This document shows, piece after piece, positions 1 to 64,000 of a stretch of DNA of 64,000 nucleotides. A program made the position numbers and the translations under genes. Source of the stretch: Deinococcales bacterium (GTDB lineage: Bacteria > Deinococcota > Deinococci > Deinococcales > JAAFIG01); assembly GCA_013298185.1 (NCBI GenBank), contig JAAFJQ010000002.1:9591-73590 (forward strand), written 5' to 3'. Position 1 is the stretch's first letter; the number at the start of each line of letters is the position of its first letter. The notes below the pieces were generated by a model, which saw only the letters and a list, made by a program, of their open reading frames with translations, was not told the DNA's origin and made no database searches.

Positions 1-2276
1 TAGAACTCGAGGGGCTGGCACGAGATGGGATTAAACGGCGTTACAAGCCCGAACAGCACAAAGCTGCCCTAAAACTGATGAGCCATGAACTCGAGGTGAT
101 TGAAGAACTGGGCTTGGCTGAGTATTTCTTGGTGGTGCATGAAGTCATCGAAGCAGCTCGAGCTTTGAAGATTCGCACGGCAGGGCGGGGGAGTGCTGCC
201 TCGAGCATTGTGGTTTATGCGTTGGGGATTGCCCACGCTGACCCGCTTAAGTTTAGGTTGAGATTTGAGCGGTTCTTAAACACTGGGCGTTTTGTGAACA
301 AGCGCGAAGCTCCAGACATTGATGTGGATGTGCAATCAGAACGCCGCCAAGAACTGATTGAATGGGTGACGCAAAGGTTTGCTGGTCAGACGGCAATGGC
401 TGCCAACATCAACACGTATGGACTTCGCGGCGCAACCAGAGACGCGGCGCGGCTGCTGGGCTGGACACATGACCAAGCTGGGGAGTTGACTCGAGTGCTG
501 CCGTATTCGGGCAGACCACGGAACATCAGGAGGCATACAAACGAACTCGAGAGAGTGGCAGGACAAAGTGTGCTGCTCGAGGTGCTGCTGAGCCTTGTGG
601 AGCGCCTGGACGATTGCCCGAGGGATTTAGGACTTCACTCAGGGGGAATGTTGTTGGCTCGAGATTCGATTCTCAGTCACAGTGCAGTCAAACGCAGTGC
701 CAATGGAACGCTTCAAACATTCCTGGATAAACGCACCGCCGAACACGCAGGGCTGGTCAAACTTGACCTTTTGGGCTTGCTGACTTTGGATGTGCTACAA
801 ACAGCCGTTGAATTACTCGAGGCTCAAGGGATGATCTTAGACCTCGAGAACGTGGATTTAGACGATGCACAGATTTATGCTGGCTTAAAAGATGGCAAAG
901 TGATTGGGCTGTTTCAAGTGGAATCACCAGCCCAACAAGCCCTGATTGCCCAACTGCAACCCGAGAATTTTCTTGACCTTGTGGCGCAAGTTGCACTGAT
1001 TCGCCCCGGACCAATCCAAGCCCAATCGGTGCGCCCGTACATCAAACGGCGCAAAGGACTCGAGAAAGTGACATACCCACACTCGAGCCTCGAGCCAGTC
1101 TTGCGCCAGACATATGGGGTGATGGTTTTTCAAGACCAAGCGATTGAGACAGCTCAGACCATTTGTGGGATGAGCATTGACGAAGCCGATAAGTTTAGAA
1201 AATTGGTATCCAAGGCTCGAGACCGTGAGGACATGGAATCTATGCGGGAGGTGTTTACAACTCGAGCGAAAGAAACCCATGCGGACATTGACGATGAAAA
1301 AGCCAATGCTGTTTTCGAGATGGTAGCAGGGTTCGCAGGTTATGGTTTTCCACTTTCGCATTCGGTGGCGTTCGCAACCACAGCCGCGCACACGGCGTAT
1401 TTGAAGGCGCTCTATCCTGCTGCTTTTTTATGTGCGGTCTTGGAGCATGAACCCGGTATGTATCCGAGGCTAACGATTACCCAAGAAGCGCGGCGCATGG
1501 GTATCCCTGTGCTGCCCGTGAACCTCGAGGAAAGCAGTCATCGGTATAGGCTCGAGAAGGTGGATGAAGCTCTTGGTATCAGGCTGGCATTCTCTGCCGT
1601 GGATGGCATCAGTGAAACAGCAGCTCGAGGGTTGGTGCTGGGCAAACCATACTCGAGTTTGGAGGATTTGGTACGACGATCCAAGCTGGCTCGAGATGCG
1701 CTTATGAATCTGGCTCGGAGTGACGCGCTGGCAACGTTTGGAACACGGCGCGATGTGCTTTGGGAGTTGGGGGTACTGGGCAACCGATTGGGTTTGGTTC
1801 ACTCGAGTCCAGAAATGCTTTTACCGATTCATACCGTGACAGCCGAGGACATGGCTTGGCTCGAGGAATTAACAATCGAGGAAGCGCTCGAGTGGGACTT
1901 AGAGGTGACACGCACCAGTGGGGTTCACCCACTTGCACCGTTGCGCCCGATGCTCGAGGTCATGGGAGTGCGGCGCATGGACAAGATTTTTGATGGGCAG
2001 CGCTGCACCGTGGCAGGGTTAGTGGTGGCTCGGCAGCGACCAGAGACCGCGAAAGGGGTGGTTTTCTTGCTGCTCGAGGATGAAAGTGGGCATGTCCAAG
2101 CGATTGTGAAGAGTGACACTTGGCTCGAGCAGCGCCAGATTTTGCGCTCGAGGGCGTTGTTGGTAACTGGACGAGTGCAAAGGTTACGGGGATGGAAAAC
2201 AATCATGCTCGAGGAAGTGGAAGTTCTCGAGACAGCACAGGTGAGGGAAGCTGAGATGGCGTACTTTGTGCGGTGA
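1..2276 (+). CDS. dnaE2: Error-prone DNA polymerase III alpha-type subunit (DnaE2/ImuC-like); 3' ~757 codons, 5' end off the left edge
   Basis: The frame is open from base 3 (ELEGLARDGIKRRYKPEQHKAALKL precedes the first Met at 78). PolIII-alpha motifs: GRGSAASSIVVYALGI, GLVKLDLLGLLTLDVL, ALIRPGP, VFQDQAIE, GYGFPLSHS. The C-terminal OB fold RCTVAGLVVARQRPETAKGVVFLLLEDESGHVQAIV is as in DnaE2. Confidence 0.85.
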   Translation, partial: ELEGLARDGIKRRYKPEQHKAALKLMSHELEVIEELGLAEYFLVVHEVIEAARALKIRTAGRGSAASSIVVYALGIAHADPLKFRLRFERFLNTGRFVNKREAPDIDVDVQSERRQELIEWVTQRFAGQTAMAANINTYGLRGATRDAARLLGWTHDQAGELTRVLPYSGRPRNIRRHTNELERVAGQSVLLEVLLSLVERLDDCPRDLGLHSGGMLLARDSILSHSAVKRSANGTLQTFLDKRTAEHAGLVKLDLLGLLTLDVLQTAVELLEAQGMILDLENVDLDDAQIYAGLKDGKVIGLFQVESPAQQALIAQLQPENFLDLVAQVALIRPGPIQAQSVRPYIKRRKGLEKVTYPHSSLEPVLRQTYGVMVFQDQAIETAQTICGMSIDEADKFRKLVSKARDREDMESMREVFTTRAKETHADIDDEKANAVFEMVAGFAGYGFPLSHSVAFATTAAHTAYLKALYPAAFLCAVLEHEPGMYPRLTITQEARRMGIPVLPVNLEESSHRYRLEKVDEALGIRLAFSAVDGISETAARGLVLGKPYSSLEDLVRRSKLARDALMNLARSDALATFGTRRDVLWELGVLGNRLGLVHSSPEMLLPIHTVTAEDMAWLEELTIEEALEWDLEVTRTSGVHPLAPLRPMLEVMGVRRMDKIFDGQRCTVAGLVVARQRPETAKGVVFLLLEDESGHVQAIVKSDTWLEQRQILRSRALLVTGRVQRLRGWKTIMLEEVEVLETAQVREAEMAYFVR

Positions 2277-2449
2277 ATATCTGCTCGAGACTCGGCTTTT
2301 AACCGCGAAGCGGATACAAGGTTTTTGATGCGAAGCATGGAGCGAAGCGACGAACTGGGTTAGGGTTGCCTCAAGCCTTGGCTTGTTAAGCATATACAAA
2401 TGGTTTTCGTAAAGATGCGTTAGAATCGAAAGCAAACAGGAGTTGACCA

Positions 2450-3991
2450 ATGACAAGCGAAGCACAACGCGCCGCACTACAAGCCCAAATCTGGAAAATA
2501 GCCAATGATGTACGCGGTTCTGTGGACGGATGGGATTTTAAGCAATTCGTACTGGGTAGCCTTTTTTATCGTTTCATCAGCGAGAATTTCACACGGTACA
2601 TTGAAGGCGGCGACGACAGCATCAAATACGCCGAGATGCCCGATGAGCTGATGACCGCAGCCATCAAAGATGACGCAATTAAAACCAAAGGGTATTTTAT
2701 TTACCCAAGCCAACTTTTTGTGAACATTGCCGCCAAAGCCAAAGACAACGAGAACCTGAACACCGAACTCAAAGAAATTTTTACCGCCATTGAAAGCAGC
2801 GCCAATGGCTACCCTTCTCAAGACGACATCAAAGGGTTATTTGCTGATTTTGACACCACCAGCAACCGCCTTGGCAACACCGTCAAAGACAAAAACAGCC
2901 GCTTGACTGCGGTTCTAAAAGGCGTAGCTGGTCTGAGTTTTGGTGATTTTGAAGACAACCAGATTGACCTCTTTGGTGATGCCTACGAGTTCCTGATTTC
3001 CAATTATGCGGCTAACGCGGGCAAATCTGGTGGTGAGTTTTTCACACCGCAACATGTTTCTAAACTGATTGCACAACTGGCAATGCACAACCAAACAACG
3101 GTCAATAAAATCTATGACCCTGCGGCTGGATCAGGTTCTTTGCTGCTCCAAGCCAAAAAACACTTTGATGCCCATGTGATTGAAGAAGGCTTCTACGGGC
3201 AGGAAATCAACCACACCACTTATAACCTAGCCCGAATGAACATGTTTTTGCATAACATCAATTACGACAAATTCAGCCTAGCCCTTGGTAACACGCTGCT
3301 AGACCCGCATTTTGGTGATGAAAAACCCTTCGATGCAATCGTTTCAAACCCGCCGTATTCGGTCAATTGGATTGGCAGCGACGACCCAACCCTAATCAAC
3401 GATGATCGCTTTGCCCCTGCTGGTGTGTTAGCCCCAAAATCCAAAGCTGATTTTGCTTTTGTCCTCCATGCCCTAAGTTACCTTTCTGCCAAAGGACGAG
3501 CCGCGATTGTTTGCTTTCCCGGTATTTTTTACCGAGGCGGCACAGAACAAAAAATAAGGCAGTATTTGATAGACAACAATTTTGTTGAAACCGTGATTTC
3601 ATTAGCCCCAAACTTGTTTTATGGCACAACCATTTCAGTATGTATCTTGGTGTTATCCAAGCACAAGCCAGACACCAAAACCCAGTTTATAGATGCCAGT
3701 GGACTTTTCAAAAAAGAAACCAATAACAACACCCTGACCGATGACCACATAACCCAGATTATGCGGATTTTTGAGAGCAAAACCGATATTGAACACTTAG
3801 CCAAATCGGTTGACCTCGAGAAGATAACCGCCAATGATTACAACCTTTCGGTGAGTTCGTATGTCCAAGCCAAGGAGAAAAGGGAAGTGGTGAACATAAC
3901 CACCCTGAACAAAGACCTAGAAACCACTGTAGCCAACATAGACCGCCTTCGCACTGAAATAGATGCGATTATTGCGGAGATAGAAGCATGA
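2450..3991 (+). CDS. hsdM: Type I restriction-modification system, N6-adenine DNA methyltransferase subunit (type IC, EcoR124-like)
   Basis: 513 aa. HsdM N-terminal motif [35 protein letters not shown], AdoMet motif [13 protein letters not shown], catalytic NPPY ([10 protein letters not shown]). ATGA overlap with hsdS at 3988-3991. Confidence 0.95.
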
Positions 3992-5169
3992 GCCAGCCAA
4001 CCTTTATGGAGCGACTGCTCGAGGGTGTGACGGTGGAATGGAAGCCGTTGGGAAGCGTAGCTGATTATGAACAACCGACAGAGTATCTCGTTAAGACAAC
4101 TAACTATAGCGACGACTTTGAAACTCCAGTTTTAACCGCAGGAAAAACTTTCATCCTTGGTTACACTGATGAAACAGAGGGTATTTATAAAGCTTCACTA
4201 AAACCTGTAATTATTTTTGATGACTTTACAACAGCCAACAAATGGGTAGATTTTGACTTTAAAGCCAAGTCTTCAGCAATGAAAATGATTACATCTATTG
4301 ATGAAACCAAAGTTTCATTAAGATATGTCTACCATTGGTTAAACACATTGCCCACAGAATTAATTGATGGAGACCATAAACGTCAATGGATTAGCAATTT
4401 TGCTAATAAAAAAATTCCCATCCCGCCCCTCGAGGTTCAAGCGGAAATTGTTCGTATATTGGATACATTCACCGAGCTTACAGCCGAGCTTACAGCCGAG
4501 CTTACAGCCCGCAAAAAGCAATACACCTACTACCGCGACCAGCTTTTAACCTTTGAAGAAGGGCATGCAGAATGGAAAACATTGGAAGAAGTCGCAATAT
4601 ACCGCCGAGGCTCTTTTCCCCAGCCATACGGCGAAGATAAATGGTACGACGGTGAGGGCGCAATGCCGTTCGTGCAAGTTGTTGATGTTGGTGCAAATAT
4701 GCGACTTGTAGAAATTACAAAAAACAAAATATCAAAGTTGGCACAGCCCAAAAGTGTTTTTGTAAAAGAGGGAACAGTCATTGTAACTCTACAGGGCAGC
4801 ATTGGGCGTGTTGCTATCACTCAATATGATTGTTTTGTGGATAGAACTTTGGCAATATTTGAAAAATTCCAGATAGAAATTGATACCAAGTATTTTGCTT
4901 ATCAACTTCAAGCAAAATTCGGAATTGAAAAAGAGAATGCACGCGGTAGCACAATAAAAACAATCACAAAAGAAGAATTTTCCAAGTTTAAAATCCCCAT
5001 CCCGCCCCTCGAGACTCAAGCCCGAATCGTTGCTATCCTCGATAAATTCGATGCCCTAACCAATTCCATCACCGAGGGCTTACCTCGAGAAATTGCCTTG
5101 CGTCAACAGCAGTACGAGTATTACCGTGAATTACTTCTTAGCTTCCCTAAACCAGAGGCAGGGGTCTGA
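3988..5169 (+). CDS. hsdS: Type I R-M specificity subunit
   Basis: 393 aa. Two target-recognition halves, each followed by the conserved helix KIPIPPLE(V/T)QA(E/R)IV(R/A)ILD. Central ELTA x3 repeat; C-terminal [11 protein letters not shown]. Confidence 0.9.
4474..4509 (+). repeat. 3 x 12-bp perfect tandem repeat GAGCTTACAGCC (ELTA x3) in the central conserved region of hsdS
   Basis: Read directly: units at 4474-4485, 4486-4497 and 4498-4509. Confidence 0.95.
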
Positions 5170-5173
5170 ACCC

Positions 5174-5680
5174 ATGAGTAACGCGCCGCGTTTTACGATT
5201 ACTTCCGATATTCTTAATTTGGTGGCTGGTATCAGCGAACAAGTCGGTAGGCTTAACGCCAGTGCTTTAAGTCTGTCGCCGCAGTTACGCAAACAAAATC
5301 GGATTAAAACCATTACGGGAACACTGGCAATTGAAGGGAACACACTGACCGAAGAACAAGTCACGGCGATTCTCGAGGGTCGGCGGGTCTTGGGGAGTGT
5401 GCAGGAAAATGCCCCTGTAAATGCCCCTGTAAATGCCCCTGTAAATGTGGTGGGGTTGAAAACACCAGATGCCATTTTGCTTTTGATTCAAGATAACCCT
5501 CGGCTTACTCGGCAACAAATAGCCAGTACCTTACAAAAAGATGTGCGAACCATTGGACGTGTCATAACCCAGTTACAACAGGCAGGCAACTTAAAAAGAA
5601 TTGGTTCTGATAAGGCTGGTCATTGGGAAGTCAACCCAACGTGGCAACTATCGGCAAAAAGGATGCAGACTCATGAATGA
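5174..5680 (+). CDS. Fic-family N-terminal domain + C-terminal winged-HTH protein lacking the Fic catalytic core
   Basis: Start ATG 5174 (MSNAPRF). Fic_N-like region with inhibitory-helix-type motif [15 protein letters not shown]-terminal wHTH-like [34 protein letters not shown]. No HxFx(D/E)GNGR motif anywhere; an APVN x3 repeat sits where the core would be. Stop overlaps the hsdR start. Confidence 0.6.
5408..5447 (+). repeat. ~3.3 x 12-bp tandem repeat AATGCCCCTGTA (NAPV repeats) inside the Fic-like gene
   Basis: Read directly: units at 5408-5419, 5420-5431 and 5432-5443, plus a partial unit. Confidence 0.9.
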
Positions 5681-8600
5681 ATTTAAACCAATCGCAGAAG
5701 CCAACACGTTTATTGTTCTCGAGAAATACACCAAAATCGAGCAGCTAAACGGCGGATACCAAAGCGAAGCCGATTTAGAACGTGAATTGATTCAAGACTT
5801 ACAGAATCAGGGTTATGAGTACCTGCCCACGCTGACCAGCCCTGAAACCATGCTGGCGAATGTGCGGGTGCAACTAGAAACCCTGAACAACATGCGCTTT
5901 AGTGATGCTGAGTGGTTGCGTTTTATCGAAGAGTATTTGGATAAACCCAGCGATGGCATGACCGAAAAAGCCAAGAAAATTCATGATAATTACATTCACG
6001 ATTTTGTGTTTGATGATGGGCATATTCAAAACATTTACCTTGTAGACAAAAAGAATACGGCTCGGAATAAACTACAAGTGATTCGGCAATTTGAACAAAA
6101 AGGCACACAAGCCAATCGGTACGATGTTACGATTCTGGTCAACGGCTTACCGTTGGTTCAGGTTGAACTGAAAAAACGTGGCGTGGCAATACGTGAAGCT
6201 TTTAATCAAGTGCATCGGTACAGCAAAGAGAGCTTTAACTCGAGTAATTCGCTTTATAAGTACATTCAGATTTTTGTGATTTCCAATGGCACGGACAGCC
6301 GTTATTTTGCCAATACCACCAAGCGCGATAAGAACAGCTTTGATTTCACAATGAATTGGGCAAGAGCCGATAACACCTTGATTAAAGACCTAAAGGATTT
6401 TACTGCAACTTTTTTTGCAAAAAACACCTTGCTGCAAGTCCTGCTGACCTATTCGGTGTTTGATATTGGTGAAACTTTGCTGGTGATGCGTCCATATCAG
6501 ATTGCTGCGACTGAACGAATGTTATGGAAGATTAACAGTTCGTATCAGGCTAAAAAATGGAGCAGCACCGAAGGCGGTGGCTTTATTTGGCACACGACTG
6601 GTTCGGGTAAAACCCTAACGAGTTTCAAGGCGGCGCGGTTAGCCACTGAACTCGAGTTTATTGAAAAAGTCTTTTTTGTGGTGGATCGCAAAGACCTTGA
6701 TTACCAAACGATAAAAGAGTACCAGCGTTTTTCACCTGATAGTGTCAACGGTTCGGACAGCACGGCGGGCTTAAAAAGCAATATCGAAAAAGATGACAAT
6801 AAAATCATTGTCACCACGATTCAAAAGCTGAATAACTTACTAAAAACCGAGGCGAATTTAGCGATTTACGATAAGCAAGTGGTGTTTATTTTTGATGAAG
6901 CCCACCGCTCGCAATTTGGTGAAGCTCAAAAAAACTTAGCAAAAAAATTCAAAAAGTTTTATCAGTTTGGTTTTACTGGCACACCGATTTTTCCTCAGAA
7001 TGCCTTGGGAGCTGACACCACCGCCAGTGTCTTTGGTCGTGAGTTGCATTCTTATGTGATTACTGATGCGATTCGGGATGAAAAAGTTTTGAAGTTTAAG
7101 GTTGATTATAACGATGTACGTCCTAAGTTTAAGGCGATTGAATCCGAGCAAGACGAGCAGAAACTCTCGGCAGCCGAGAACAAAGAAGCCTTGCTGCACC
7201 CTGAGCGAATCAAAGAGATTGCGCGGTATGTACTCAGTAATTTCAGGCAGAAAACCCGCCGGTTACAAGCTGGCGGTAAGGGCTTTAACGCCATGTTTGC
7301 AGTCAGCAGCATAGACGCTGCCAAACTGTACTACGAGGCTTTGCAGAACCTACAAAAAGACAGTGACAAACCCCTGAAAATCGCCACGATTTATTCTTTT
7401 GCCGCCAACGAAGAACAAGGCGCGATTGGTGAAATTCTCGATGAGGGTTTTGAACCCTCGGCGCTCGAGAGCAGCGCCAAAGAGTTTTTAAGCGCTGCAA
7501 TTGCTGATTACAACGCCATCTTCAAAACGAATTTTAGTGTTGACAGCAAAGAGTTCCAGAATTATTACCGCGACCTTGCCAAGCGAGTCAAAGACCAAGA
7601 GATTGATTTGCTGATTGTGGTTGGGATGTTCCTGACTGGTTTTGACGCGCCGACGCTGAACACCTTATTTGTGGATAAAAACCTGCGGTATCACGGTTTA
7701 ATTCAGGCTTTTTCGCGCACCAATCGGATTTTTGGTGCGACCAAAACCTTTGGGAATATTGTGCTGTTTCGGAATTTAGAACAAGCCACAAAAGATGCAC
7801 TGACGCTTTTTGGCGATAAGAACACCAAAAACATTGTGCTGGAAAAAAGTTACAAAGAGTACATGGAGGGTTTTACCGACATCTCCACTGGTGAGGCACG
7901 GCGCGGTTATTTGGATGTGGTGCAGGAATTACAGGAGCGCTTTCCTAACCCTGACGAGATCATCACTGAAAAGGACAAAAAAGACTTTGCCAAGCTGTTT
8001 GGTGAATACCTGCGGGTTGAAAATATTTTGCAAAACTACGATGAGTTTGCTGGTCTAAAAGCCCTGCAAGACGTGGATTTGAGCGACCCTGCGGCGGTAG
8101 AAGAATTCAAAACCAAGCACTTTTTAGACGATGACGAACTCGAGCGGATGCAGCAAGTGAAAATACCAAAAGAGCGCACGATTCAAGATTACCGTTCGAC
8201 TTACAACGACATTAGGGACTGGTTGCGCCGCGAGCAAACTGGCAAAGAAAAAGCCGCCTCGAGTGTAGACTGGGATGATGTTACTTTTGAAGTGGATTTG
8301 CTCAAATCCCAAGAGATCAACCTAGACTATATTCTTGAACTGATCTTTGAACACAAGAAAAAACTCAAAGATAAAACTGCTCTGGTCGAAGAAGCCAGCC
8401 GCTTGGTACGTGCCAGCGTCGGCAACCGCGCCAAAGAGAGCTTATTGGTTGACTTTATCAACCGAACTGACCTTGATACAATCCAAGACAAAGCCAGCAT
8501 CATTGAAGCATTTTTTACTTTTGCACAAGGTGAACAGCAACGCGAAGCACAAGACTTAATTGCATCTGAGAACCTGAATATTGAAGCCGCCAAACGATAC

Positions 8601-8771: not shown

Positions 8772-8917
8772 GTGCTGTGTTTAGCAAGCTCGAGCAGGCA
8801 AAAAAAACACGCCACTTCTGGGCGCTGATAGAAACAAGCATACGGCATTATTCTGTATTCGTCAAGTTTATGCACTTGGATTCGTGTATAACAGTGTTTT
8901 TACTGATTTCCAACCAC

Positions 8918-9031: not shown

Positions 9032-9060
9032 GCTTTAACCGACTTTTTTATTGAGTTATT

Positions 9061-55680: not shown

Positions 55681-55685
55681 ATGGT

Positions 55686-56651
55686 TTACCTCCGAAGGAG
55701 TGGGCGTATCACCCATGTAGCAACAGTCACAGCCGCGATAACGATGCCTGACAAGACATAGGCGTTCATGTCACCTTGCGCTCGAGCGATGTACCGCCAT
55801 GCGATGGCAAACATGGCGAACGCCGCGACGATGGGCAGGATGGCGATGCCTTTTTCTTCCCTTGCGCCTGAGTGTTCGGACAAGCTGAGAATGTGCTTGG
55901 CGTTCATCACTTCATCAGGGGATTTATAGGTGACGAGCCGCACGACTTCGCCCGGATTACCTTGGGATAATGCCACGATGCGCTCGGTGTAGGCTTCATC
56001 ATCTCGGGTAATGACACGATTTTGCTGCATGACCAGCTTGGTTAATTCTCGGGTGTCCTTTTGGTTCAGGTTCTCGAGCCTGACTTCCTCGAGCCGTTTC
56101 CAGAAACGCCGTGTGTCCTTTTTGTTCATGGCTTCAGGCAGACACGCCACAACCAAGGTCGCAGCCTCGAGCCACGCGATTAAAAAGGGTTGAATACTCG
56201 GGCTGATACCGCCCACGTCCTCGATAACAAGGGTGATTTTTGGATGGTCTTTTTGGTACTCGAGAAACGCCTCGAGCAGACTCTTGGCTTTTTCGTCGTT
56301 GTTAGGGAATGCTTTGCCCCATTCTTTACGGGCGAAATCAATATCTTTGTACCAATCGGTGCGGGGGATATTACGCAGGATGTTCAATGCCTTTTGGTCA
56401 TGCAGTTGCGTGAAAATTTCACGCAGGGCAGCATTCCACGGGCTGACGCGCTCGAGATGTATAACAGCGCTGCGCTCCTCGAGGAGCGGATAGAGTTTTT
56501 GGAGCAATGCGGACTTACCTGTGCCTGAGTCACCAGTGACAAGCACACTGTTTCCGCGCTCGATGTGATTAAACACGGTTCTGGCATAGCTCGAGCGAGC
56601 TATAAGAACTGTGTCCTCGCGTGCTGCAAACACGGTTGGACCCCCTTTCAC
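55686..56651 (-). CDS. P-loop AAA-type ATPase with two C-terminal transmembrane helices
   Basis: Walker A GDSGTGKS, Walker B LVIEDV. C-terminal GIAILPIVAAFAMFAIAW and VLSGIVIAAVTVATWVI. Confidence 0.65.
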   Translation of the reverse strand: MKGGPTVFAAREDTVLIARSSYARTVFNHIERGNSVLVTGDSGTGKSALLQKLYPLLEERSAVIHLERVSPWNAALREIFTQLHDQKALNILRNIPRTDWYKDIDFARKEWGKAFPNNDEKAKSLLEAFLEYQKDHPKITLVIEDVGGISPSIQPFLIAWLEAATLVVACLPEAMNKKDTRRFWKRLEEVRLENLNQKDTRELTKLVMQQNRVITRDDEAYTERIVALSQGNPGEVVRLVTYKSPDEVMNAKHILSLSEHSGAREEKGIAILPIVAAFAMFAIAWRYIARAQGDMNAYVLSGIVIAAVTVATWVIRPLLRR

Positions 56652-56670
56652 CTGGAAGGGAGTTTAGCAG

Positions 56671-56759
56671 ATTGATAGCAAAATGTCATGCTATATTGAT
56701 AGCATTCTATATTTATATATTTTGTTGTTTTAATTTTGATATAATGCTATAATTATATC
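56671..56759 (+). promoter_or_regulatory. AT-rich divergent control region: two ATTGATAGC boxes, TTTGATATAATG block, TATAAT 7 nt before the parA ATG (leaderless-type)
   Basis: Boxes at 56671-56679 and 56695-56703. TTTGATATAATG at 56735-56746. TATAAT at 56748-56753. No Shine-Dalgarno before ATG 56760. Confidence 0.45.
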
Positions 56760-57395
56760 ATGGCTAAGAAAAAACCCTCCTCTCGAGTCGTAGCATTTGT
56801 CAGCCTTAAAGGTGGTGTCGGTAAAACCACGAGCTGCTGGTTCTTTGCTGGTGTCGCCCTCGAGCTTGGCAAATCTGCAAAAATCATAGATGCCGATAAC
56901 GAGCAAAGCACCCTCGAGTGGGGTGCAATCCTCGACGATAAACCCAATAACTTGAGCTTTATAGCTGCCAATGCCCGTACCCTCGAGAAAGTCGCCCAGC
57001 CAATGCCCAATGAAGTGGTGCTGATTGACTGCCCACCGAATCAGCGTGAAGTCTTAAACGTTGCGGCAGAATTGGCAGATGACATTATCTTATGTGTGCG
57101 CCCAACTGGTGTGGATGCCAACCGCGCCCGATCCACGCTCGAGGTACTGGCGGCGCTGGACGAAAAACGGGTCAAAGCTGGTAAGAAAGCCCTACGGGTG
57201 GCAGTGCTGGTGACGCACTTTCAAGGGAATAAGAAACTCCATAAAGAAGCTTTTGCCGCCTTATCCAATGCCCTGCCAACCTTTGAGACACCGATTCGGT
57301 ACTTGACCATGTACGAAGAAGCCTTTGGGCAGATTCCACGCGGTAAGGCACTCGAGGAGTACAGGCAAGTTTGGAAGGAGTTGGAAGACGCATGA
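56760..57395 (+). CDS. parA: ParA/Soj-family partition ATPase (small, type Ib-like)
   Basis: Deviant Walker A SLKGGVGKTT. 211 aa. Followed by an RHH protein. Confidence 0.85.
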   Translation: MAKKKPSSRVVAFVSLKGGVGKTTSCWFFAGVALELGKSAKIIDADNEQSTLEWGAILDDKPNNLSFIAANARTLEKVAQPMPNEVVLIDCPPNQREVLNVAAELADDIILCVRPTGVDANRARSTLEVLAALDEKRVKAGKKALRVAVLVTHFQGNKKLHKEAFAALSNALPTFETPIRYLTMYEEAFGQIPRGKALEEYRQVWKELEDA

Positions 57396-57610
57396 AAACC
57401 AAGATGAAAAGCATCTCGAGTATCCTAGGCACTGCCACGCAAAAAGCCGTGACCACAAGTGAACCCACCAACCAAGAAGACCAAGTGCAATTATTGCTGC
57501 GGATTCCTGCTTCGTTACACAGTGAAGTCAAAGCAAAAGCGGCTGCACAACGTAAAAGCATGAAGGTTGTGGTTGAGGAACTGCTGGGCAATTGGGTCAA
57601 AGGCTTATAA
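57392..57610 (+). CDS. Ribbon-helix-helix (ParG/CopG-like) protein
   Basis: ATGA overlap with parA. C-terminal VQLLLRIPASLHSEVKAKAAAQRKSMKVVVEELL. Confidence 0.6.
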   Translation: MKTKMKSISSILGTATQKAVTTSEPTNQEDQVQLLLRIPASLHSEVKAKAAAQRKSMKVVVEELLGNWVKGL

Positions 57611-57613
57611 GGC

Positions 57614-58336
57614 ATGGCAAAAATCACCCTTGAAATTCTGGGGCAGCACATTCAAAGCATTGCCAGTGGTTACAGCAAGCAAATTTTAGAATTGGAAGAC
57701 GCGGCGTTTCTTGCTGATGATGTCCAAGCCATTCGGATTCAGCTCGAGCAACTGCAACACCAAATGCGGCTCGAGCAGCTTGAGCCTTTAAGGGTAAAGC
57801 ATCCTGTGCATATTGCTTGGTTCACGATTGATGAATTGCCGAAGCCTTTGATTGGAAGGATTCAAAACGCCATCGAAGTATTGCGCTTGCTGTTGCCACA
57901 ACCTCAAGGACACGCGGGTTTCTACCTTGAAGTGCTGCACCGCCCTGAAATGGTCTGTGAGTACAGGTTCGTGAAACCTGACTTTTCGGAAATTTACCTC
58001 CGAAGCGATGCACCAACCAATGTGATTGTGCATGAGCTTGGACACTGGCTCGAGGCTTCGATACCAGGCGCAGAGAAGGCAGCATTTGCCCACCTTCTGC
58101 CTAGGGTGCAAAATGAAGAGCCGCGACACCTTGGACCTGGATACCATGCGCTCGAGTACACGCAGCCAGACGCATTTATCCACCCCTACACGGGAAAGTG
58201 CAAAGCAGACGGCTCGAGGGTGTACACTGAACTGATTAGCATTGGCTTGGAGTACCTGTACCAAGACCCGATGCTCCTGATTGAACAAGACCCACAAACC
58301 ACTGTTTTTCTTTTCAACCTATTGGAGTCCGTATGA
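57614..58336 (+). CDS. Putative zinc metallopeptidase (HExxH)
   Basis: VIVHELGHWLE is the only motif. 240 aa. Confidence 0.45.
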   Translation: MAKITLEILGQHIQSIASGYSKQILELEDAAFLADDVQAIRIQLEQLQHQMRLEQLEPLRVKHPVHIAWFTIDELPKPLIGRIQNAIEVLRLLLPQPQGHAGFYLEVLHRPEMVCEYRFVKPDFSEIYLRSDAPTNVIVHELGHWLEASIPGAEKAAFAHLLPRVQNEEPRHLGPGYHALEYTQPDAFIHPYTGKCKADGSRVYTELISIGLEYLYQDPMLLIEQDPQTTVFLFNLLESV

Positions 58337-58647
58337 CCCTTTCAAGTACCAACAGCAGCAAACAAACCCAGCGCAACCAGAAACGCCCAAAAGGTGGTGT
58401 TCAGACGCTCGAGCAATTAACCGCCCTTGAATACCAAGGCACTCGAGCCGAGTTAAAGCATGGGGTTTGGCACTCGAGCGACGCGGCGTTTGCCAAGCGA
58501 TTGACCGAGTTGAGTTTAATGATTGGTTACACTGCGGCTGACCCAAATCCAGATGCAACCATTGCTCGAGGGATTGCTGCACGGCTTGGGGCGCGATTGG
58601 TACAAGTTGGGGCTGCTCCGAAACGCTCACCCGATGCAATATATTAA
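58333..58647 (+). CDS. Hypothetical 104-aa protein
   Basis: 4-nt overlap with the upstream gene. No motif. Confidence 0.4.
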   Translation: MTLSSTNSSKQTQRNQKRPKGGVQTLEQLTALEYQGTRAELKHGVWHSSDAAFAKRLTELSLMIGYTAADPNPDATIARGIAARLGARLVQVGAAPKRSPDAIY

Positions 58648-58678
58648 AATATCTTTATATCATTATATATTGATAGCT

Positions 58679-59602
58679 TTATATCGGTTTCATGCTGGTT
58701 ATATCTGGCAGCGCGGTGACCGCTGTTTGCAACCGTGCTTGACTTGCATGAACATAAATCTGTGTCGTGGCGATGCTGGCATGACCCAGAATGTCCTTTA
58801 CCTCGTCTAAGCTCCGTCCATGCTCCATCAGTGCTGAAGCAAAACTATGCCGTAACTTGTGAGCGCTCCTCGAGCCTAGCCCAGCCTCGGCTGCTGCGGT
58901 GCGGATAATTTTGTCGGCACTCTGCACACTCATGCGTTTATTCCTCGAGCGCCCTCGGGTGTTCACCCAGACATACGGGTTGGTTAAATCCCCCTCGAGC
59001 TTGCGATGCCGAATCCATTGGTGCAGCGCGGTTTGAGCGGTTGAAGAAAGCGGCACGATTCTTTCTTTGTTGCCTTTACCAATCACTTTGACCGCCACTG
59101 GCAAACCATCTTGGCGAATAATGCTCGCCCCTTCCTCGAGGGTCATGTTTAAGCACTCCGAAATTCGCAAGCCAGAGCCGTACAAAAACGCGATCAGACT
59201 CCAGTTACGGGTTTTCTCGGCTGACCGACAATACTTTAAGACCGCATCCAGCATTTTTGAAACCTCGAGCGGAGTCATCGATTTGGGGAGGCGCTGCGGC
59301 AGTTTGGGTTTGCTGATTTTCGCGGCTGGATTACCATTGATCAGTCCTTCGGCTGCCAAGAATCCCATGAATGACCGCAAAGCAGCCACCACCCGATGAA
59401 CGCGGTGCGGTGAAGCACCCTCGAGCGAAGCTAAAAAACCCCGAATGTCCAAGGTGCTGACTTCTGACCACTGCCAAGCTGGGGCGTTCTTGGTCATGAA
59501 TTTAGAGAATTGCTCGAGGTCGTTGCTGTATTCGGTGATGGTTCGGGGTTGCCTGCCTTTTTCGGTTTTGAGGAAGGTGCGCCAAGTGTCGAGGTGGTTC
59601 AT
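58679..59602 (-). CDS. Tyrosine site-specific recombinase (XerC/XerD-like)
   Basis: Start ATG 59602 behind AAGGAG. GSGLRISECLN (Arg), HKLRHSFA (H-x-x-R), LGHASIATTQIYVH (His...Tyr). Confidence 0.9.
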   Translation of the reverse strand: MNHLDTWRTFLKTEKGRQPRTITEYSNDLEQFSKFMTKNAPAWQWSEVSTLDIRGFLASLEGASPHRVHRVVAALRSFMGFLAAEGLINGNPAAKISKPKLPQRLPKSMTPLEVSKMLDAVLKYCRSAEKTRNWSLIAFLYGSGLRISECLNMTLEEGASIIRQDGLPVAVKVIGKGNKERIVPLSSTAQTALHQWIRHRKLEGDLTNPYVWVNTRGRSRNKRMSVQSADKIIRTAAAEAGLGSRSAHKLRHSFASALMEHGRSLDEVKDILGHASIATTQIYVHASQARLQTAVTALPDITSMKPI

Positions 59603-59796
59603 GGTTCTCCTTATGAATAGGTTAGACCCAAAGGGATGACGGGGGTCTGGCGGTGTCGTCTGGCTCAAAAGTGATTATACCACAAATAATAGTTTGTACA
59701 ACTGAGTTTAAATGCCCGACCAAGACGGTTTAAGGCTGTCTGAGACGATGAATCGCCACCAAAACGCGCTAGGCGATGGTACAGTCAAAGGCTAGA

Positions 59797-59830
59797 ATTG
59801 GATTACAAATAGTCAGATTGGATTACAAAT
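59797..59830 (+). repeat. Two 14-bp direct repeats ATTGGATTACAAAT spaced 20 bp, overlapping the -35 region of a TTTGATATAATG promoter
   Basis: 59797-59810 and 59817-59830, read directly. TTTGATATAATG at 59840-59851. Confidence 0.8.
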
Positions 59831-59848
59831 TATTGATATTTTGATATA

Positions 59849-60259
59849 ATGATAGCAATACATCAAGCTAGAAAGCTATCGAAAATTGTTCAGAGTTGTA
59901 TATTCTTTGGCATGACCCAGAAAAAGCCTAAAACCCTCTCAAGCCTCGGAATCGAACCACGAATGAAGCAATACAGTGTTTTGGAAGCCCAAGCCCTACT
60001 GGGTTACAAAACTCGAGCTTCGATCTACAAATTAATCGCTGATGGATTCCTCGAGCATATCAACCCACAAAAGCATGTTGCCCGAATTACTGGCTCGAGC
60101 TTGATGGATTATTTAGAGGCAACCAATGCTGGGAAGAAGCCACAAGCCAAGTACACCAAAAAAGATGCTCGAGCAGTAGAAGCGGCTGCACCCGTTAGAG
60201 CCGAGAAAGGCTCGAGTGCGGCTGATAAGTTGCGGGAGTGGATGGGACTGAAGAGGTAA
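59849..60259 (+). CDS. Excisionase/MerR-type HTH DNA-binding protein (true start probably 59912 or 59963)
   Basis: YSVLEAQALLGYKTRASIYKLIADGFLEHI. The first ATG lies inside the TATAAT block. Confidence 0.6.
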   Translation: MIAIHQARKLSKIVQSCIFFGMTQKKPKTLSSLGIEPRMKQYSVLEAQALLGYKTRASIYKLIADGFLEHINPQKHVARITGSSLMDYLEATNAGKKPQAKYTKKDARAVEAAAPVRAEKGSSAADKLREWMGLKR

Positions 60260-60299
60260 GACCCCTCGGGTTTGGCTCGAGCCACCAGTATGGGGCTTA

Positions 60300-60440
60300 C
60301 AGCGAACGGCATTTTAGGTATATTTAGTTTTTTACAGAATATACCTATGTAATTTTTGTCAATAACGTAGTATCTAAATCAGCATTATGTTTTTAGCTAA
60401 TGTCACATTAGGTTAATACGTTCAAATAAAAACGCTCAAG
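60300..60440. other. AT-rich region with 10-bp inverted repeat TAGGTATATT / AATATACCTA; origin-of-replication candidate
   Basis: Arms 60315-60324 and 60338-60347. Flanked by the Rep-candidate gene's 3' end. Confidence 0.3.
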
Positions 60441-60486
60441 AATGGCAAAAGCCGCTCGAGCTGCTCAAGATTTTTGAAACTGATTT

Positions 60487-61806
60487 TTAAGCCATCGAAG
60501 GCTTGCCGAGGTGTAAGTCCTCGGTTATTTTCTCGAGCTTCTGCCAATCCAGCCCATTTAAGAGCTTTCTGGCATAGGCTCCCATGTTACGAACCTTCCC
60601 ACTGCTTGACTGCTGTACCAAAGTGCCAACCAAAGCCTCCATAATCAGCTTTTGGGCATCTATGCCGTGGTACACAATGGCTTTTGCGGCTGTCCATGCC
60701 ACGGCTAACCAACCTTCTACAGAATGATGGTCGTTTAGCGCCTGTGAAATGGCATTTGCTATTCTGTCAACCCAAGCAACACGCCCGCGATAACGGGTCG
60801 GGATGGGTTCTTCGAGTGCGTCATTGACAGCGTTAAGCGATTCAAGGTCACATACATTAACTACGATCTTTTCAATAGAAAATACGGGTAACGATAAATA
60901 GAAGAATTGCTTTATGAGTAAAATGTTCGACATATTGCTTTTGTTCCGCTTTGTATGTGACTTATCACCATGAGAAGCGAAATCAGCCGTGTCCGTGGCA
61001 TTCACTTTCCGAGTTTTAGCCTGCTCGAGCAGCAGCGAAGCGGTACGCCCTGCCTCGATGTCTTTGCCCATGTCTCGCCAGACCCGTTTGAAGTCTGCTC
61101 CTCGAGGGCGTGGGGACTTGCCAAGAGGTAGTGGGGTTGGGTGGGTGGTGTAGATCGTGCCGCCAGTGGCTCGAGCGGCTTCGGAGTCCGCTGCGCCCGA
61201 GCTGGCAATCCAGTAATCTGACACCCAAGCCTCACAGCCAATGAGCCGTTTGAAGAATTCACCTTCGGGCTTGGTTCGGATTAAGCGGTAGGTGTGTTCT
61301 CGAGACCAGCCGCACAAGTAAGCAGCCACGTTAAAGGGCAGCACACCGCACAGGATAGCGTTTGATTTGGCTTTGGTGTTCCACATCAGGGTAACGGTGC
61401 GGAGAAGTACAGCGAGGTCAAAGAGGCATCCTAGTTCTTTGTGGTACTGGCTGTACTGCTCGAGCGCTCGCCCTCGAGCCATTGACCAGGCTTGAGAGAA
61501 TTTGTCCACGTTCATGGTGAGGTCTGGGCGTAGGTCGCGGCGTTCAATGCTAGGGAAGATGGTTAGTTTTTGCTGCACCGCGCTGGTGGGTGTTTCTTCG
61601 TCTGGAAGGTCGGTTCTGAGATTGGCTTTAATGCTCTCGAGGAATTGCGGGTTTATAGCGGGTCTCGCTTGAGGTTGGGGGAAGAGCTGGTTTTGGGCTT
61701 TGAGTTGGGCTTTATAGGCTTGGTCTTTGGCTCGAGCAGCGTTTTGGTGCTGACGCACCTGCTCGAGCATGGCTTGCCATTCGGGGGTGTTGGGGGCAGG
61801 GGTCAT
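60487..61806 (-). CDS. Hypothetical 439-aa protein, plasmid replication-initiator candidate by position only
   Basis: No recognised motif. Contains an odd AT-rich internal patch (about 60840-61000, KSNMSNILLIKQFFYLSLPVFSIEKIVV) that may mark a two-domain junction or an internal site. Confidence 0.35.
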   Translation of the reverse strand: MTPAPNTPEWQAMLEQVRQHQNAARAKDQAYKAQLKAQNQLFPQPQARPAINPQFLESIKANLRTDLPDEETPTSAVQQKLTIFPSIERRDLRPDLTMNVDKFSQAWSMARGRALEQYSQYHKELGCLFDLAVLLRTVTLMWNTKAKSNAILCGVLPFNVAAYLCGWSREHTYRLIRTKPEGEFFKRLIGCEAWVSDYWIASSGAADSEAARATGGTIYTTHPTPLPLGKSPRPRGADFKRVWRDMGKDIEAGRTASLLLEQAKTRKVNATDTADFASHGDKSHTKRNKSNMSNILLIKQFFYLSLPVFSIEKIVVNVCDLESLNAVNDALEEPIPTRYRGRVAWVDRIANAISQALNDHHSVEGWLAVAWTAAKAIVYHGIDAQKLIMEALVGTLVQQSSSGKVRNMGAYARKLLNGLDWQKLEKITEDLHLGKPSMA

Positions 61807-61914
61807 GAGTGACCTTTGCTAGACTTGAGTCTAAATACGAGGGGTTTGGGGGGCGAAAAAGTGTATAGCACGGCGACCTCTTTTCTAGGGAGATGGCTGT
61901 TACCAACGTTTTAC

Positions 61915-62058
61915 TATGTGTTGGTATAGCGATATGACGGCAAGGGAGTCCTCTTTTTGGGGAGGCTTGCTAGATTCGGGGTTTATCGCTACACTCGAAG
62001 CAACTCAGGTTTCGATGTGTAGCGCCCCCCATGCTCAAGTGGGGGGTTTGCGCTTTTT
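61915..62058 (+). ncRNA. Candidate structured small RNA ending in an intrinsic terminator
   Basis: Long-range stem GTATAGCGATA (61924-61934) / TATCGCTACAC (61984-61994, one mismatch). Terminator CCCCCCA-N8-TGGGGGG (62025-62046) with outer GCGC arms, then TTTTT (62054-62058). No credible CDS on this strand. Confidence 0.25.
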
Positions 62059-62209
62059 GCGCGGCTGTGATTCACCTACGGCTGGTTCGCCTTGCTCAGG
62101 GGCGGCGGTTGGGTGGGGTCACTGGGTCAATAATATCTCCTTGATTTGTATTGTAATGGATTTGTCAGGCGAGAAGCCCGAGAAGTGTTCTATAAAAAAG
62201 CTGAAGTGT

Positions 62210-63217
62210 TCAGGTAGAAAATAAGCGCTCGAGTTGGTTTAAAAGGGCTTCGGCTTGTTGGCGTTTTTTGGCGGGTAGGGTGTCTATTTGCTTGGCGATG
62301 GTTTGCACTCGAGGTCTGAGTTTTGGAAAGCTGGGCGGTGGGGCTGGGGTCAGGGCTTTTTGGGCTTGGCTGACCAAGGTCTTGATTTGGGTTAGGGGTA
62401 AGGAGAGTTGCAAGACCCGCTCGAGGAGGTCAGCGCGGGTTTTGGGGTCTTTGATCTTGCTGAGTTCTTTGGCTTTGGTGTACTCGAGTTCGCCTCGTTG
62501 CATGACATCGAGGAGGTCTTGGGGTAGTGAGAGGATGGGTAGGCGATTGGTCACAAAGGATTCCCATGTGATGTGATGCGAGTTTTGAAAAACCTCGAGG
62601 ATTTTTGACTCGATTGGGCTACCCATGATGAAGTGATTTGGATTTACAATAACGTTATTGTAAATTTTGGTCTTGCCTCGGAATTCGTTTTGATAACGAT
62701 TGAGTATCTTGGCTACCACAACCCTAATATCATTGTTTTGCTGACACAAAAGTTTAAACTCTGGTAGTGGCTCGAGTTCAACCGATAAAAGGTCTAACCA
62801 ACCAATGGTTTCTTCATAGTCGTTCAGGTCTTGGCGTTGCAGATTTTCCGATAAACCAATGCGGCGGGCTTCTCGGTTGGTCAGTTGGCGGATGTTAGCT
62901 TTGAGGGTGGGCATACCAGCCACTTGCGCGGCTCGGAGGCGGCGTTCACCGACCACGACCTCGAAACGCCCGTTTTCGGTGGGACGAACCATGATCGCGT
63001 GAATTTGACCATTCTCGAGCATGTCCTGTCCGAGGAGTTTGATTTGTTCGGAGTCAAAGTAACGCCGTGCGTTCCACGGGGCGGGGTCAAGCTGATTGAT
63101 GGGCAGGTCATTGACTGGCTCGAGCGGCGAGAGGCTTTTGAGCGGTTCGGATTGGGCAATGTTATCGCGGTAGGTGTCTATGGCGCTGAAGTCTATGCTG
63201 CGCTTGGGCTTGGTCAT
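62210..63217 (-). CDS. parB: ParB/Spo0J-family partition protein
   Basis: ParB N-terminal domain IHAIMVRPTENGRFEVVVGERRLRAAQVAG. 4-nt overlap with parA. Confidence 0.85.
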   Translation of the reverse strand: MTKPKRSIDFSAIDTYRDNIAQSEPLKSLSPLEPVNDLPINQLDPAPWNARRYFDSEQIKLLGQDMLENGQIHAIMVRPTENGRFEVVVGERRLRAAQVAGMPTLKANIRQLTNREARRIGLSENLQRQDLNDYEETIGWLDLLSVELEPLPEFKLLCQQNNDIRVVVAKILNRYQNEFRGKTKIYNNVIVNPNHFIMGSPIESKILEVFQNSHHITWESFVTNRLPILSLPQDLLDVMQRGELEYTKAKELSKIKDPKTRADLLERVLQLSLPLTQIKTLVSQAQKALTPAPPPSFPKLRPRVQTIAKQIDTLPAKKRQQAEALLNQLERLFST

Positions 63218-64000
63218 GGTTCACCTGCTTCGGTGACATCAAGGTCTATTTCAGCTGCAAGTTGGCGGTGTTGTTCGGCAGAGGATGAATCTGGTTGGAA
63301 CTGCCCGAGGGCTTGACCGGTACTGGGTGCTTCGGCGGCTTTTGAGGCTTCGTGGATGATGGTGGCAAAGACGGGTACAGCGAACTTGGGAAGCTGCGAG
63401 ACGACTTCTTTGCATAAGAGCATTCGGGAGTCGTAACGGGTGGCGAGCAAACCCAAGACCCTGAGTTTAGGATTGGCTTCGCGGCGCACCTGTTCGATCC
63501 TCGAGAGCAGCGCGGTTAAGCCTTGGAGGGCGTAGAAGTGGGCTGCCACAGGTACAACCACTTCTTGAGCGGCGCAGAGGACGTTATAGGTAAGTTGCCC
63601 GAAGTTGGGTGGAGAATCCAAGAGGATATAGTCGTAATGCGCCATCAGTTCGGGTGAGATGGCGTTCTTTAAGGTGTTATGACCTCCAAAACGCCCTGTG
63701 AGGGACTGATCCACTTCGGCTAACTCGAGGTGGGACGGAACAATATCGAGGTTTGGGGTGGTGGTGGTCTGCACCACTTCGGAGAGTTTGCGGTCTGGCT
63801 GAGCGAGGATCGCCGCGATGCTGCGCGAAGCGGGGATATTGGCGACACCAAGACCGATGGAGAGGTTGGCTTGGGCATCGCAGTCCACGACCAGCACCCG
63901 ATGACCGCGTTCGGTCAGGGCATGACCAAGATTGGCGGTGGTGGTGGTTTTACCGACTCCTCCTTTTTGATTGGAAAAAGCAATCACTCGAGCGTTACGG
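63214..64000 (-). CDS. parA: ParA/Soj-family partition ATPase; 5' end probably just beyond the right edge
   Basis: Deviant Walker A NQKGGVGKTTT. The frame stays open upstream of the GTG at 63987 through to the window end. Confidence 0.85.
   Translation of the reverse strand, partial: RNARVIAFSNQKGGVGKTTTTANLGHALTERGHRVLVVDCDAQANLSIGLGVANIPASRSIAAILAQPDRKLSEVVQTTTTPNLDIVPSHLELAEVDQSLTGRFGGHNTLKNAISPELMAHYDYILLDSPPNFGQLTYNVLCAAQEVVVPVAAHFYALQGLTALLSRIEQVRREANPKLRVLGLLATRYDSRMLLCKEVVSQLPKFAVPVFATIIHEASKAAEAPSTGQALGQFQPDSSSAEQHRQLAAEIDLDVTEAGEP

Follow-up and report, generated by a model that had tools for sequence, protein, structure and literature searches.

CTCGAG, a hyper-abundant palindrome in an uncultured lineage of Deinococcota, looks like a HIP-type motif outside the cyanobacteria

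A palindrome of six bases that recurs about every two hundred bases, in genes of all kinds and between them, raises the question of what force installs it and what reads it. The case considered here is CTCGAG, the recognition site of XhoI, in a stretch of 64,000 nucleotides (hereafter the window) from a Deinococcales bacterium (GenBank assembly GCA_013298185.1, contig JAAFJQ010000002.1, positions 9,591 to 73,590 of the forward strand; GC 0.476). An earlier inspection of the letters alone (the sequence-only reading) had noticed its abundance and had likened it to HIP1 (highly iterated palindrome 1, GCGATCGC) of cyanobacteria. Counts against several null models, related contigs and orthologue alignments are brought together here. 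The resulting picture looks like a HIP-type motif outside the cyanobacteria, in an uncultured lineage of Deinococcota, installed by a context-blind force acting on each site. A strong, uniform, substitution-based force at the level of DNA favours CTCGAG throughout the lineage, while its agent is a matter on which we infer.

The window holds 327 copies of CTCGAG (5.1/kb, mean spacing 196 bp), whereas 100 dinucleotide-preserving shuffles gave a mean of 7.4 (sd 2.9, maximum 16), i.e., an observed/expected ratio of about 44. Markov models of order 0, 1, and 2 predict 14, 8, and 20 copies, respectively. Orders 3 and 4 raise the expectation to 96 and 274 because the hexamer dominates its own sub-words (CTCGA 357 copies, TCGAG 359, and 327 of the 468 TCGA, or 70%, inside CTCGAG); the maximal-order model, which expects 274, was uninformative as a null for this motif and lower orders and shuffles were used instead. 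CTCGAG is the top-ranked hexamer, followed by its own overlaps GCTCGA (141) and TCGAGC (137), and the commonest hexamer that does not overlap it is TTTTTT (100 copies). The hand counts made earlier proved exact (30 in 1-2300, 16 in 48407-50059, 12 in 37261-40257, 10 in 17185-19352, 6 in the 627-bp abiEi gene at 9083-9709, and 4 in the 276-bp HNH gene at 12004-12279). The expectation of 16 copies that went with them had assumed equal base frequencies; the real composition gives 7-14, and the excess is therefore larger than stated. With a ratio of about 44 for the dinucleotide shuffle and about 8.4 for the synonymous-codon shuffle described below, the count is far from the value near 1 that background would give. 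The excess surpasses the roughly 15-fold over background that characterizes HIP-type palindromes and is the opposite of the under-representation expected of a site under active XhoI-type restriction.

The excess is not a property of one reading frame. Shuffling synonymous codons within each gene, with proteins and codon usage kept, yielded 35 ± 5.5 copies (maximum 52) against 296 observed in coding DNA, and for Pfam-supported genes only, 28 ± 4.6 against 240. By phase, CTC-GAG (Leu-Glu dipeptides) has 179 sites in 274 eligible contexts (odds ratio vs. the codon-shuffle null 19.3), nCT-CGA-Gnn ([S/P/T/A]-Arg-[V/A/D/E/G] tripeptides) 67 in 118 (20.4), and nnC-TCG-AGn (x-Ser-[Ser/Arg] tripeptides) 53 in 158 (20.8), so that CTCGAG is written at 66%, 55-57%, and 33-34% of the opportunities. 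One context-blind shift of the odds, about 20-fold (about e^3), describes the coding data. The 6.7 kb of non-coding DNA contain 28 sites, 24-43 times the masked-composition expectation, an excess of the same order as the coding shift or somewhat larger, at a density of 4.2/kb vs. 5.2/kb in coding DNA. Outside the motifs, only 9.8% of Leu residues are encoded by CTC and 28% of Glu residues by GAG, their minor codon. The flanks are variable and the position matrix shows no signal beyond -1 and +1, where G(-1)/C(+1) is weakly preferred and T(-1)/A(+1) avoided. All phases, non-coding DNA and relatives show this preference, which is therefore part of the DNA-level signal. The palindrome is thus present in all frames and in non-coding DNA without any longer repeat unit. 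Frame independence, intergenic presence and a DNA-level force rather than codon or amino-acid usage, all proposed by the sequence-only reading, are borne out, and its claim of varying flanks stands apart from the weak preference at the two adjoining bases.

The same excess was found well beyond the window. Its DnaE2 (error-prone DNA polymerase III alpha) is 88% and 85% identical to the DnaE2 of two metagenome-assembled genomes labelled 'Deinococcales bacterium', and eleven contigs with DnaE2 homologues at 46-93% identity (L001, L002, L005-L010, L014, L144-L146; GC 0.47-0.65) carry CTCGAG at 4.6-8.3/kb. These contigs were drawn from NCBI, JGI, ENA, and Logan assemblies and differ in sample and gene content; CTCGAG was the top hexamer in all nine that were ranked, which settles the concern that the enrichment might be confined to the window. 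Two contigs with more distant DnaE2 behave otherwise: L015 (45% identical, GC 0.73) has 1.9/kb without clear enrichment, and L016 (43% identical) 0.4/kb, not enriched. The motif is scarce on plasmids of D. radiodurans MP1 (8 vs. 18.7 expected), D. deserti (2 vs. 8.6), and Deinococcus sp. QL22 (3 vs. 13.5). On the Abditibacteriota plasmid pIAD-21 (L011, 52766-94919) there is none in 42 kb vs. 12 expected, a classical avoidance that suggests active XhoI-type restriction in that host. Thermus plasmids show 1.6-2.7x in a CCTCGAGG context that fits their codon usage. Plasmid pMESIL01 of Allomeiothermus silvanus (L138, 185307-226113) carries 65 copies vs. 12.7 expected (5x, fifth-ranked hexamer), and this cultured member of the phylum may display a weak or incipient version of the phenomenon. 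No close named relative of the window was present in the plasmid collection, and a metagenome scan with DnaE2 returned distant matches only.

The signature extends to several kinds of mobile DNA. The window carries ParA and ParB genes (62210-63987), a second ParA-like gene and an integrase gene (region 56760-63987), which suggests that it is part of a plasmid or megaplasmid. In the relative L145 (2807-13096), ParA/ParB lie about 5 kb upstream of SRAP-imuB-dnaE2, and the ends of the window may be joined on a circular replicon of about 77 kb. Contig L008 has TraG/TraM-type conjugation genes. Scanning IMG/VR for three CTCGAG within about 70 bp returned 120 loci, many with CTCGAG as top hexamer at 4-6/kb, and three of these contigs encode structural proteins of tailed phages (portal and head-morphogenesis, tail, tape-measure) with CTCGAG as top hexamer at 4.4-5.3/kb. 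In a comparison aimed at its host, the portal protein of the CTCGAG-rich, phage-like contig L106 matched named phages at 21-23% identity only. CTCGAG is thus equally a mark of plasmid-like, conjugative-element-like and phage-like DNA.

The force reaches the proteins as well. Leu-Glu is the most over-represented dipeptide in the window proteins (268 vs. 130 expected from composition, 2.06x; Glu-Leu 118), and the other two eligible peptide classes are enriched 1.3-1.4x. DnaE2 has 13-27 Leu-Glu (2.1-4.3x expectation) in six CTCGAG-rich lineages, compared with 5 (0.66x) and 15 (1.35x) in the outgroups Deinococcus deserti and Thermus brockianus. The codon alignment of dnaE2 contains clade-wide CTCGAG sites at positions occupied by other residues in both outgroups (Phe-Thr, Lys-Glu, Val-Leu), together with independent changes to CTCGAG-written Leu-Glu in different lineages, from Lys-Glu, Leu-Lys, Asp/His/Pro-Glu, Leu-Gly/Ala, and Leu-Pro. 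Comparison of orthologues, a check proposed by the sequence-only reading, therefore reveals convergent substitutions to CTCGAG, some of them non-synonymous. The nucleotide alignments of dnaE2 are nearly gap-free, from which it follows that CTCGAG arises by substitution and not by insertion. With Leu-Glu doubled and convergent replacements to it, the force overrides weak amino-acid constraint.

Once formed, sites persist. Along 8 kb of orthologous DNA shared by L001 and L145 (85.6% identity), 77.5% of CTCGAG are retained, vs. 43% of all other hexamers, 45% of those of the same composition and 37% of CpG-centred ones. Retention between dnaE2 pairs at 55% nucleotide identity is 41% vs. 3%, and where the encoded dipeptide is conserved the codon pair is kept in 79% vs. 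20%. Sites are kept about 2.5 times better than other hexamers, and their orthologous conservation exceeds that of control motifs, the measure used by Xu et al. (2018). Gains and losses specific to single lineages are frequent; where a site is not shared and differs by one base, the difference is a C/T or G/A transition in 12 of 15 cases. Among the one-off neighbours in the window, those one transition away are frequent (CTTGAG/CTCAAG 1.5x their composition class, 49 on both strands; CCCGAG/CTCGGG 1.3x) and most transversion neighbours are depleted (0.1-0.46x, ATCGAG/CTCGAT at 0.94x being the exception). A large pool of sites, eroded by transitions and then replenished, would give this pattern. 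We considered Vsr-like repair of T:G mismatches and rejected it, since CTTGAG/CTCAAG, the deamination neighbours, are the commonest one-off neighbours and not depleted. Any persistent bias to CTCGAG would lead to high retention, which by itself is thus no means of telling selection from drive.

The other 63 palindromic hexamers are treated in the opposite way. Together they amount to 296 copies in the window vs. 936 expected, with 24 absent and 45 at three copies or fewer; GGCC occurs twice vs. 247 expected and CCGG 33 times vs. 179. Relatives (L001, L005-L010, L014) share this avoidance with ratios of 0.25-0.48. The core TCGA is rare in other palindromic contexts (TTCGAA 0, ATCGAT 2, GTCGAC 1), and outside CTCGAG it has 141 copies, vs. 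174 expected for all TCGA. Most of these lie in the asymmetric ATCGAA/TTCGAT (52, both strands), the top hexamers under the maximal-order Markov model. Judged by these frequencies, the lineage would be under very heavy restriction pressure, and CTCGAG is the sole palindrome treated oppositely. Given the purge of nearly all the others, CTCGAG must presumably be safe from cleavage: it would either be protected by methylation or have no cognate endonuclease lineage-wide, much as the sequence-only reading reasonably presumed. Unless methylated, the DNA of this lineage would be cut by XhoI into very small fragments.

A protein that could provide such protection was searched for by motif in 42 CTCGAG-rich contigs (381 kb), and no convincing candidate for a CTCGAG methyltransferase emerged. 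Proteins with NPPY, a motif typical of adenine methyltransferases, are encoded on the conjugative-element-like, CTCGAG-rich contigs L008 (21322-21900, - strand) and L006 (18158-19138); one has precomputed matches to the BpsA_C and EVE domains and the other is a DUF6094 protein beside an SNF2 helicase. The Type I HsdM of the window, the DUF6094-type NPPY protein and a truncated NPPY protein were weighed as CTCGAG methyltransferases, and none can be tied to CTCGAG. Elsewhere, orphan CTCGAG methyltransferases that have no restriction partner were described in Nocardia/Nocardiaceae (Blow et al. 2016, PMC4752239); CTCGAG is recognised there and clustered only in the dnaA-dnaN intergenic region, whereas here it is dispersed and dense. 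A hot-spring methylome preprint, in the part available, reports CTCGAG and TCGA methylation as common to one host-phage group whose taxon is not named in that part, and serves as a lead only.

Of the known systems, HIP1 is indeed the closest analogue. The sequence-only reading found no HIP1 in the window, and the count agrees (GCGATCGC 0 copies; CGATCG once). CTCGAG is therefore not HIP1 proper, and it shows the HIP-type features of excess, frame independence and preferential conservation, the last of these assessed as for HIP1 (method of PMC5861425). Further hallmarks of the class are a genome-encoded methyltransferase for the motif or its core (Elhai 2015) and a periodic distribution over 10-90 kb. 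In common with HIP1 and the alternate cyanobacterial HIPs (GGCGCC, GGGATCCC, CAGGCCTG, etc.), it is a short GC-containing palindrome, over-represented tens-fold, located in all frames and in non-coding DNA, spread by substitution, conserved above controls, and accompanied by avoidance of other palindromes. Both have the core of a restriction/methylation site (TCGA in CTCGAG; GATC and CGATCG in HIP1), and the partial outer G...C preference makes GCTCGAGC from CTCGAG, the same form as the GC-GATC-GC of HIP1. CTCGAG differs in being a hexamer and not an octamer, in its sequence, in its Deinococcota host, in its presence on some phage-like contigs, and in its density (1 per 120-215 bp vs. at most 1 per 350 bp for HIP1). 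The abundance of HIP1 has not been seen outside cyanobacteria (PMC5861425), and our literature searches turned up nothing that connects CTCGAG with hyper-abundance, HIPs or Deinococcus.

Two further systems invite comparison. The uptake signal sequences (USS) of Pasteurellaceae and DNA uptake sequences (DUS) of Neisseriaceae are, like CTCGAG, lineage-specific short motifs with hundreds to thousands of copies that spread by substitution under drive. They double encoded peptides (PMC2817400), as CTCGAG doubles Leu-Glu, and both are sparser in island-like genes. USS and DUS are asymmetric, 9-12 nt long, present about once per kb and often paired as terminators, whereas CTCGAG is palindromic, has 6 nt and reaches 5-8 copies per kb, with no extended asymmetric consensus in its flanks. 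We know of no uptake specificity in Deinococcota. The Dcm/Vsr system of Escherichia coli (CCWGG enriched, CTWGG depleted) illustrates how repair tied to a methylated site shifts oligonucleotide frequencies genome-wide, with an effect well under 2-fold. Dcm/Vsr depletes the deamination neighbour, whereas CTTGAG/CTCAAG are not depleted here and the CTCGAG excess is about 40-fold.

On balance we lean towards an independent, non-cyanobacterial case of HIP-type saturation, in which a CTCGAG-reading system with a context-blind drive of about 20-fold would have filled two thirds of the synonymous opportunities, doubled Leu-Glu, and marked plasmid-like and phage-like DNA alike. As for the agent of the force, a methylation-linked uptake/recombination drive is ranked first, tentatively, with biased repair as a close rival. 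The lineage would carry a protein that reads CTCGAG, most plausibly an orphan or always-on DNA methyltransferase with XhoI/PaeR7I specificity, and methylated DNA bearing the sites would be favoured during uptake and recombination between cells. Alleles gaining CTCGAG would then spread by molecular drive, a process already invoked for Haemophilus and Neisseria uptake sequences and, more recently, suggested for HIP1, and the outcome would be a mutation-drive balance at about 5-8 CTCGAG/kb. Deinococcus and Thermus are naturally transformable, and the natural competence of the phylum counts in favour of such a drive. Parallels come from uptake sequences, which about doubled the encoded tripeptides and accumulate after gene transfer (PMC2817400), from the finding that methylated HIP1 raises natural transformation up to > 100-fold (bioRxiv 10.1101/2024.09.10.611283), and from the co-variation of HIP1 abundance with DNA-uptake genes (bioRxiv 10.64898/2026.06.24.733823).

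Several observations weigh against an uptake/recombination drive. The only methyltransferase in the 64-kb window is a Type I HsdM, and no CTCGAG methyltransferase, receptor or nuclease was found there. DNA uptake in Thermus is not known to be sequence-specific. With 6 bp, CTCGAG is shorter than known uptake sequences, which are asymmetric 9-12-mers, and 5-8 times denser. Neither the high retention of sites nor the uniform odds per site singles out this agent; the latter, which show no diminishing returns, argue for a drive and do not say which. Moreover, phage structural genes carry CTCGAG, which uptake drive accounts for only if the contigs are prophages, so that a process inside the cell such as repair would be the simpler explanation.

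Such a repair ratchet, which we place close behind the uptake/recombination drive, would resolve mismatches or heteroduplexes toward whichever strand bears a methylated CTCGAG or would complete one, either by mismatch repair directed by methylated sites (Elhai's HIP model) or by a nicking enzyme of the very-short-patch kind. Sites would then accumulate in any DNA replicating in these cells, without benefit to the cell. It is the simplest account of a signature shared by plasmid-like, conjugative-element-like and phage-like DNA, on all of which it would act alike, and a uniform odds shift whatever the coding context is what it would produce. Island-like Type I restriction genes have also been reached (CTCGAG encodes 8 of their 15 Leu-Glu), and the G(-1)/C(+1) bias is predicted by Elhai's G-methyl-C model if the first C is methylated (PMC4390886). 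The same model, however, postulates a methyl-directed nicking enzyme that was never shown in any organism (PMC4390886), predicts saturation at about 1 site/kb, compared with 5-8/kb here, and predicts enrichment of extensions, whereas here the enrichment is of the core hexamer, whatever its flanks. Repair of T:G mismatches by a Vsr-type enzyme would deplete CTTGAG/CTCAAG, found at 1.5x, and no repair gene of such a kind is present in the window.

That the sites are directly selected for some chromosomal role is improbable. They could serve as binding sites of a nucleoid-organising protein, as epigenetic marks in replication control or strand discrimination, or as self-complementary pairing tags for the repair of shattered DNA. 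Conservation well above control motifs, from which Xu et al. argued for HIP1 (PMC5861425), speaks for a function, although it is also expected from a persistent bias alone, and the Nocardia methyltransferases, with their sites clustered near the replication origin, offer a precedent. Spacing is slightly more even than random within sub-regions (coefficients of variation 0.67-0.9) and gaps of ≤ 10 bp number 6 vs. 16 expected. Gaps are otherwise near-exponential and long ones random (24 of ≥ 500 bp vs. 25 expected), with no arrays and no clustering at any landmark in the 64 kb. Regular arrays or periodic spacing were rejected given the near-exponential gaps at short range; a gene fragment present in three copies accounts in part for spacing peaks at 27 and 30 bp. 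A function that depends on density is hard to reconcile with the use of two thirds of synonymous opportunities at equal odds and without diminishing returns, and the excess on plasmid-like and phage-like contigs also speaks against a chromosomal role.

A by-product of codon preference, of amino-acid preference (Leu-Glu written with CTC and GAG, as in Thermus) or of a CUCGAG signal in mRNA is very improbable. Its attractions are that the CTC|GAG phase is the richest (179 of 299 coding sites), that CTCGAG in Thermus brockianus lies mostly in the CCTCGAGG context fitting codon usage, and that strand symmetry is no test of an RNA signal because CTCGAG is a palindrome. As the main cause, an artefact of codon or Leu-Glu usage is ruled out by synonymous and whole-codon shuffles and the per-phase counts: 35 copies were expected and 296 observed, the other two phases are enriched by an equal factor, non-coding DNA is dense in sites, CTC and GAG are minor codons outside the motifs, and the Leu-Glu excess is derived within the CTCGAG-rich clade. 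Local or technical explanations (a mobile repeat in dispersed copies, a peculiarity of one replicon, an assembly artefact) are hardly credible even though the window resembles part of a plasmid or megaplasmid and 6 of the 327 sites lie within the three-copy repeat, as the flanks are unconserved (which, with only those 6 sites in a repeated gene fragment, also disposes of REP, MITE or other mobile elements), sites lie inside ordinary Pfam-domain genes, and the excess recurs in independent assemblies with different genes.

Within the window, the density spans 0-2/kb to 9-13/kb. It is highest in the 3' part of dnaE2 (1-2276, + strand), with 29 sites (12.8/kb) and 17 of 20 Leu-Glu written CTCGAG; the abutting sites reported there by the sequence-only reading were recovered at 1082 and 1089, 7 bp apart and in different codon phases (His-Ser-Ser-Leu-Glu-Pro, 1082-1094, + strand). 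The imuB-dnaE2 mutagenesis cassette is the CTCGAG-richest stretch of every related contig (8-13/kb vs. 2-7/kb in the flanks), as judged on the dnaE2 of the window, L005, L006, L008, L009, L010, and L014. The simplest account of its richness would be a composition rich in Leu, Glu, and Arg together with long residence of the cassette. The dnaE2 of L001 (3383-5646) has several frame disruptions and 10 stop codons in the best frame, reflecting either a pseudogene or assembly errors.

A defence and toxin-antitoxin island follows dnaE2 (2450-12979) and comprises hsdM/hsdS/hsdR, an AbiEi/AbiEii pair, a RES-Xre pair, a second AbiEi and the HNH gene. Its Type I restriction-modification operon (hsdM, hsdS, hsdR; 2450-8771, + strand) has 11 sites in 5.9 kb (0.6, 3.4, and 1.9/kb). 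This low density is explained by the small number of eligible peptides, with Leu-Glu as saturated as elsewhere (8/15 vs. 169/257, p = 0.40), which weakens low density as proof of recent acquisition; on one reading, synonymous saturation may be fast and enrichment at the amino-acid level slower or resisted. A repeat of about 115 nt occurs in three copies (8919-9031, 10723-10834, 12005-12086; 83-95% identical). The repeat matches the 3' end of the HNH endonuclease gene (12004-12279, - strand), and the other two copies resemble gene remnants between toxin-antitoxin modules. The repeated fragment contains a pair of CTCGAG 30 bp apart (8963-8998, with further copies at 10767-10802 and 12049-12084).

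Outside the island, the intergenic palindrome with sites at both ends that had been noticed by eye is a hairpin with a perfect 18-bp stem (14683-14722, - strand; -26 kcal/mol, z-score -7.2) and one CTCGAG per arm (14685 and 14715). It sits between a DUF4842 gene and a GGDEF-EAL gene; an AAGGAG ribosome-binding site follows and there is no T-run, which sets it apart from a standard terminator. For the GGDEF-EAL gene, the ATG near 14668 is the probable start, and not the GTG at 14707. The DUF4842/DUF4114 gene (14740-17034, - strand) is poor in sites, with 2 (0.9/kb) and one Leu-Glu only. Low densities were also found in two genes of GC 0.30-0.31 (36557-37268, + strand; 0 and 1 site) and in a histidine-kinase gene (41443-43098, GC 0.36; 1.8/kb). 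These low-GC signalling genes, namely a histidine-kinase-like ATPase, a response regulator and the histidine kinase, are probably foreign given their GC of 0.30-0.36 vs. 0.476 for the window. Alginate-type O-acetylation genes (21949-26751; MBOAT/AlgI-like, two AlgX-like, AlgF-like) lie inside a polysaccharide-synthesis locus with glycosyltransferases. The right-hand third (46000-64000) is rich in sites (131, 7.3/kb) and includes a YdjM-like gene (48407-50059, 16 sites), the integrase, ParA, and ParB. Scans of the window for tRNA and Rfam families gave no match.

For this lineage, the results mean that protein evolution is measurably distorted by a force acting on DNA, and that CTCGAG density offers a strong signature for binning and for assigning the lineage, its mobile elements and its phages to one another as host and guest. 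What HIP1 does and how it arose have been open questions for about three decades, with high abundance seen in cyanobacteria only. If CTCGAG is a second HIP case, independent, different in sequence and phylum, and denser, it would separate the general features of HIPs from the cyanobacterial ones. A palindrome with the core of a restriction site, a genome that purges other palindromes, a drive acting per site and a rewritten proteome would then appear general, and the uniform odds across coding phases and non-coding DNA, about 20-fold, constrain any model quantitatively. Comparative tests of what HIPs are for would become possible, and the motif may expose undescribed methylation-dependent machinery for uptake, recombination or repair in a phylum known for its DNA repair and natural competence.

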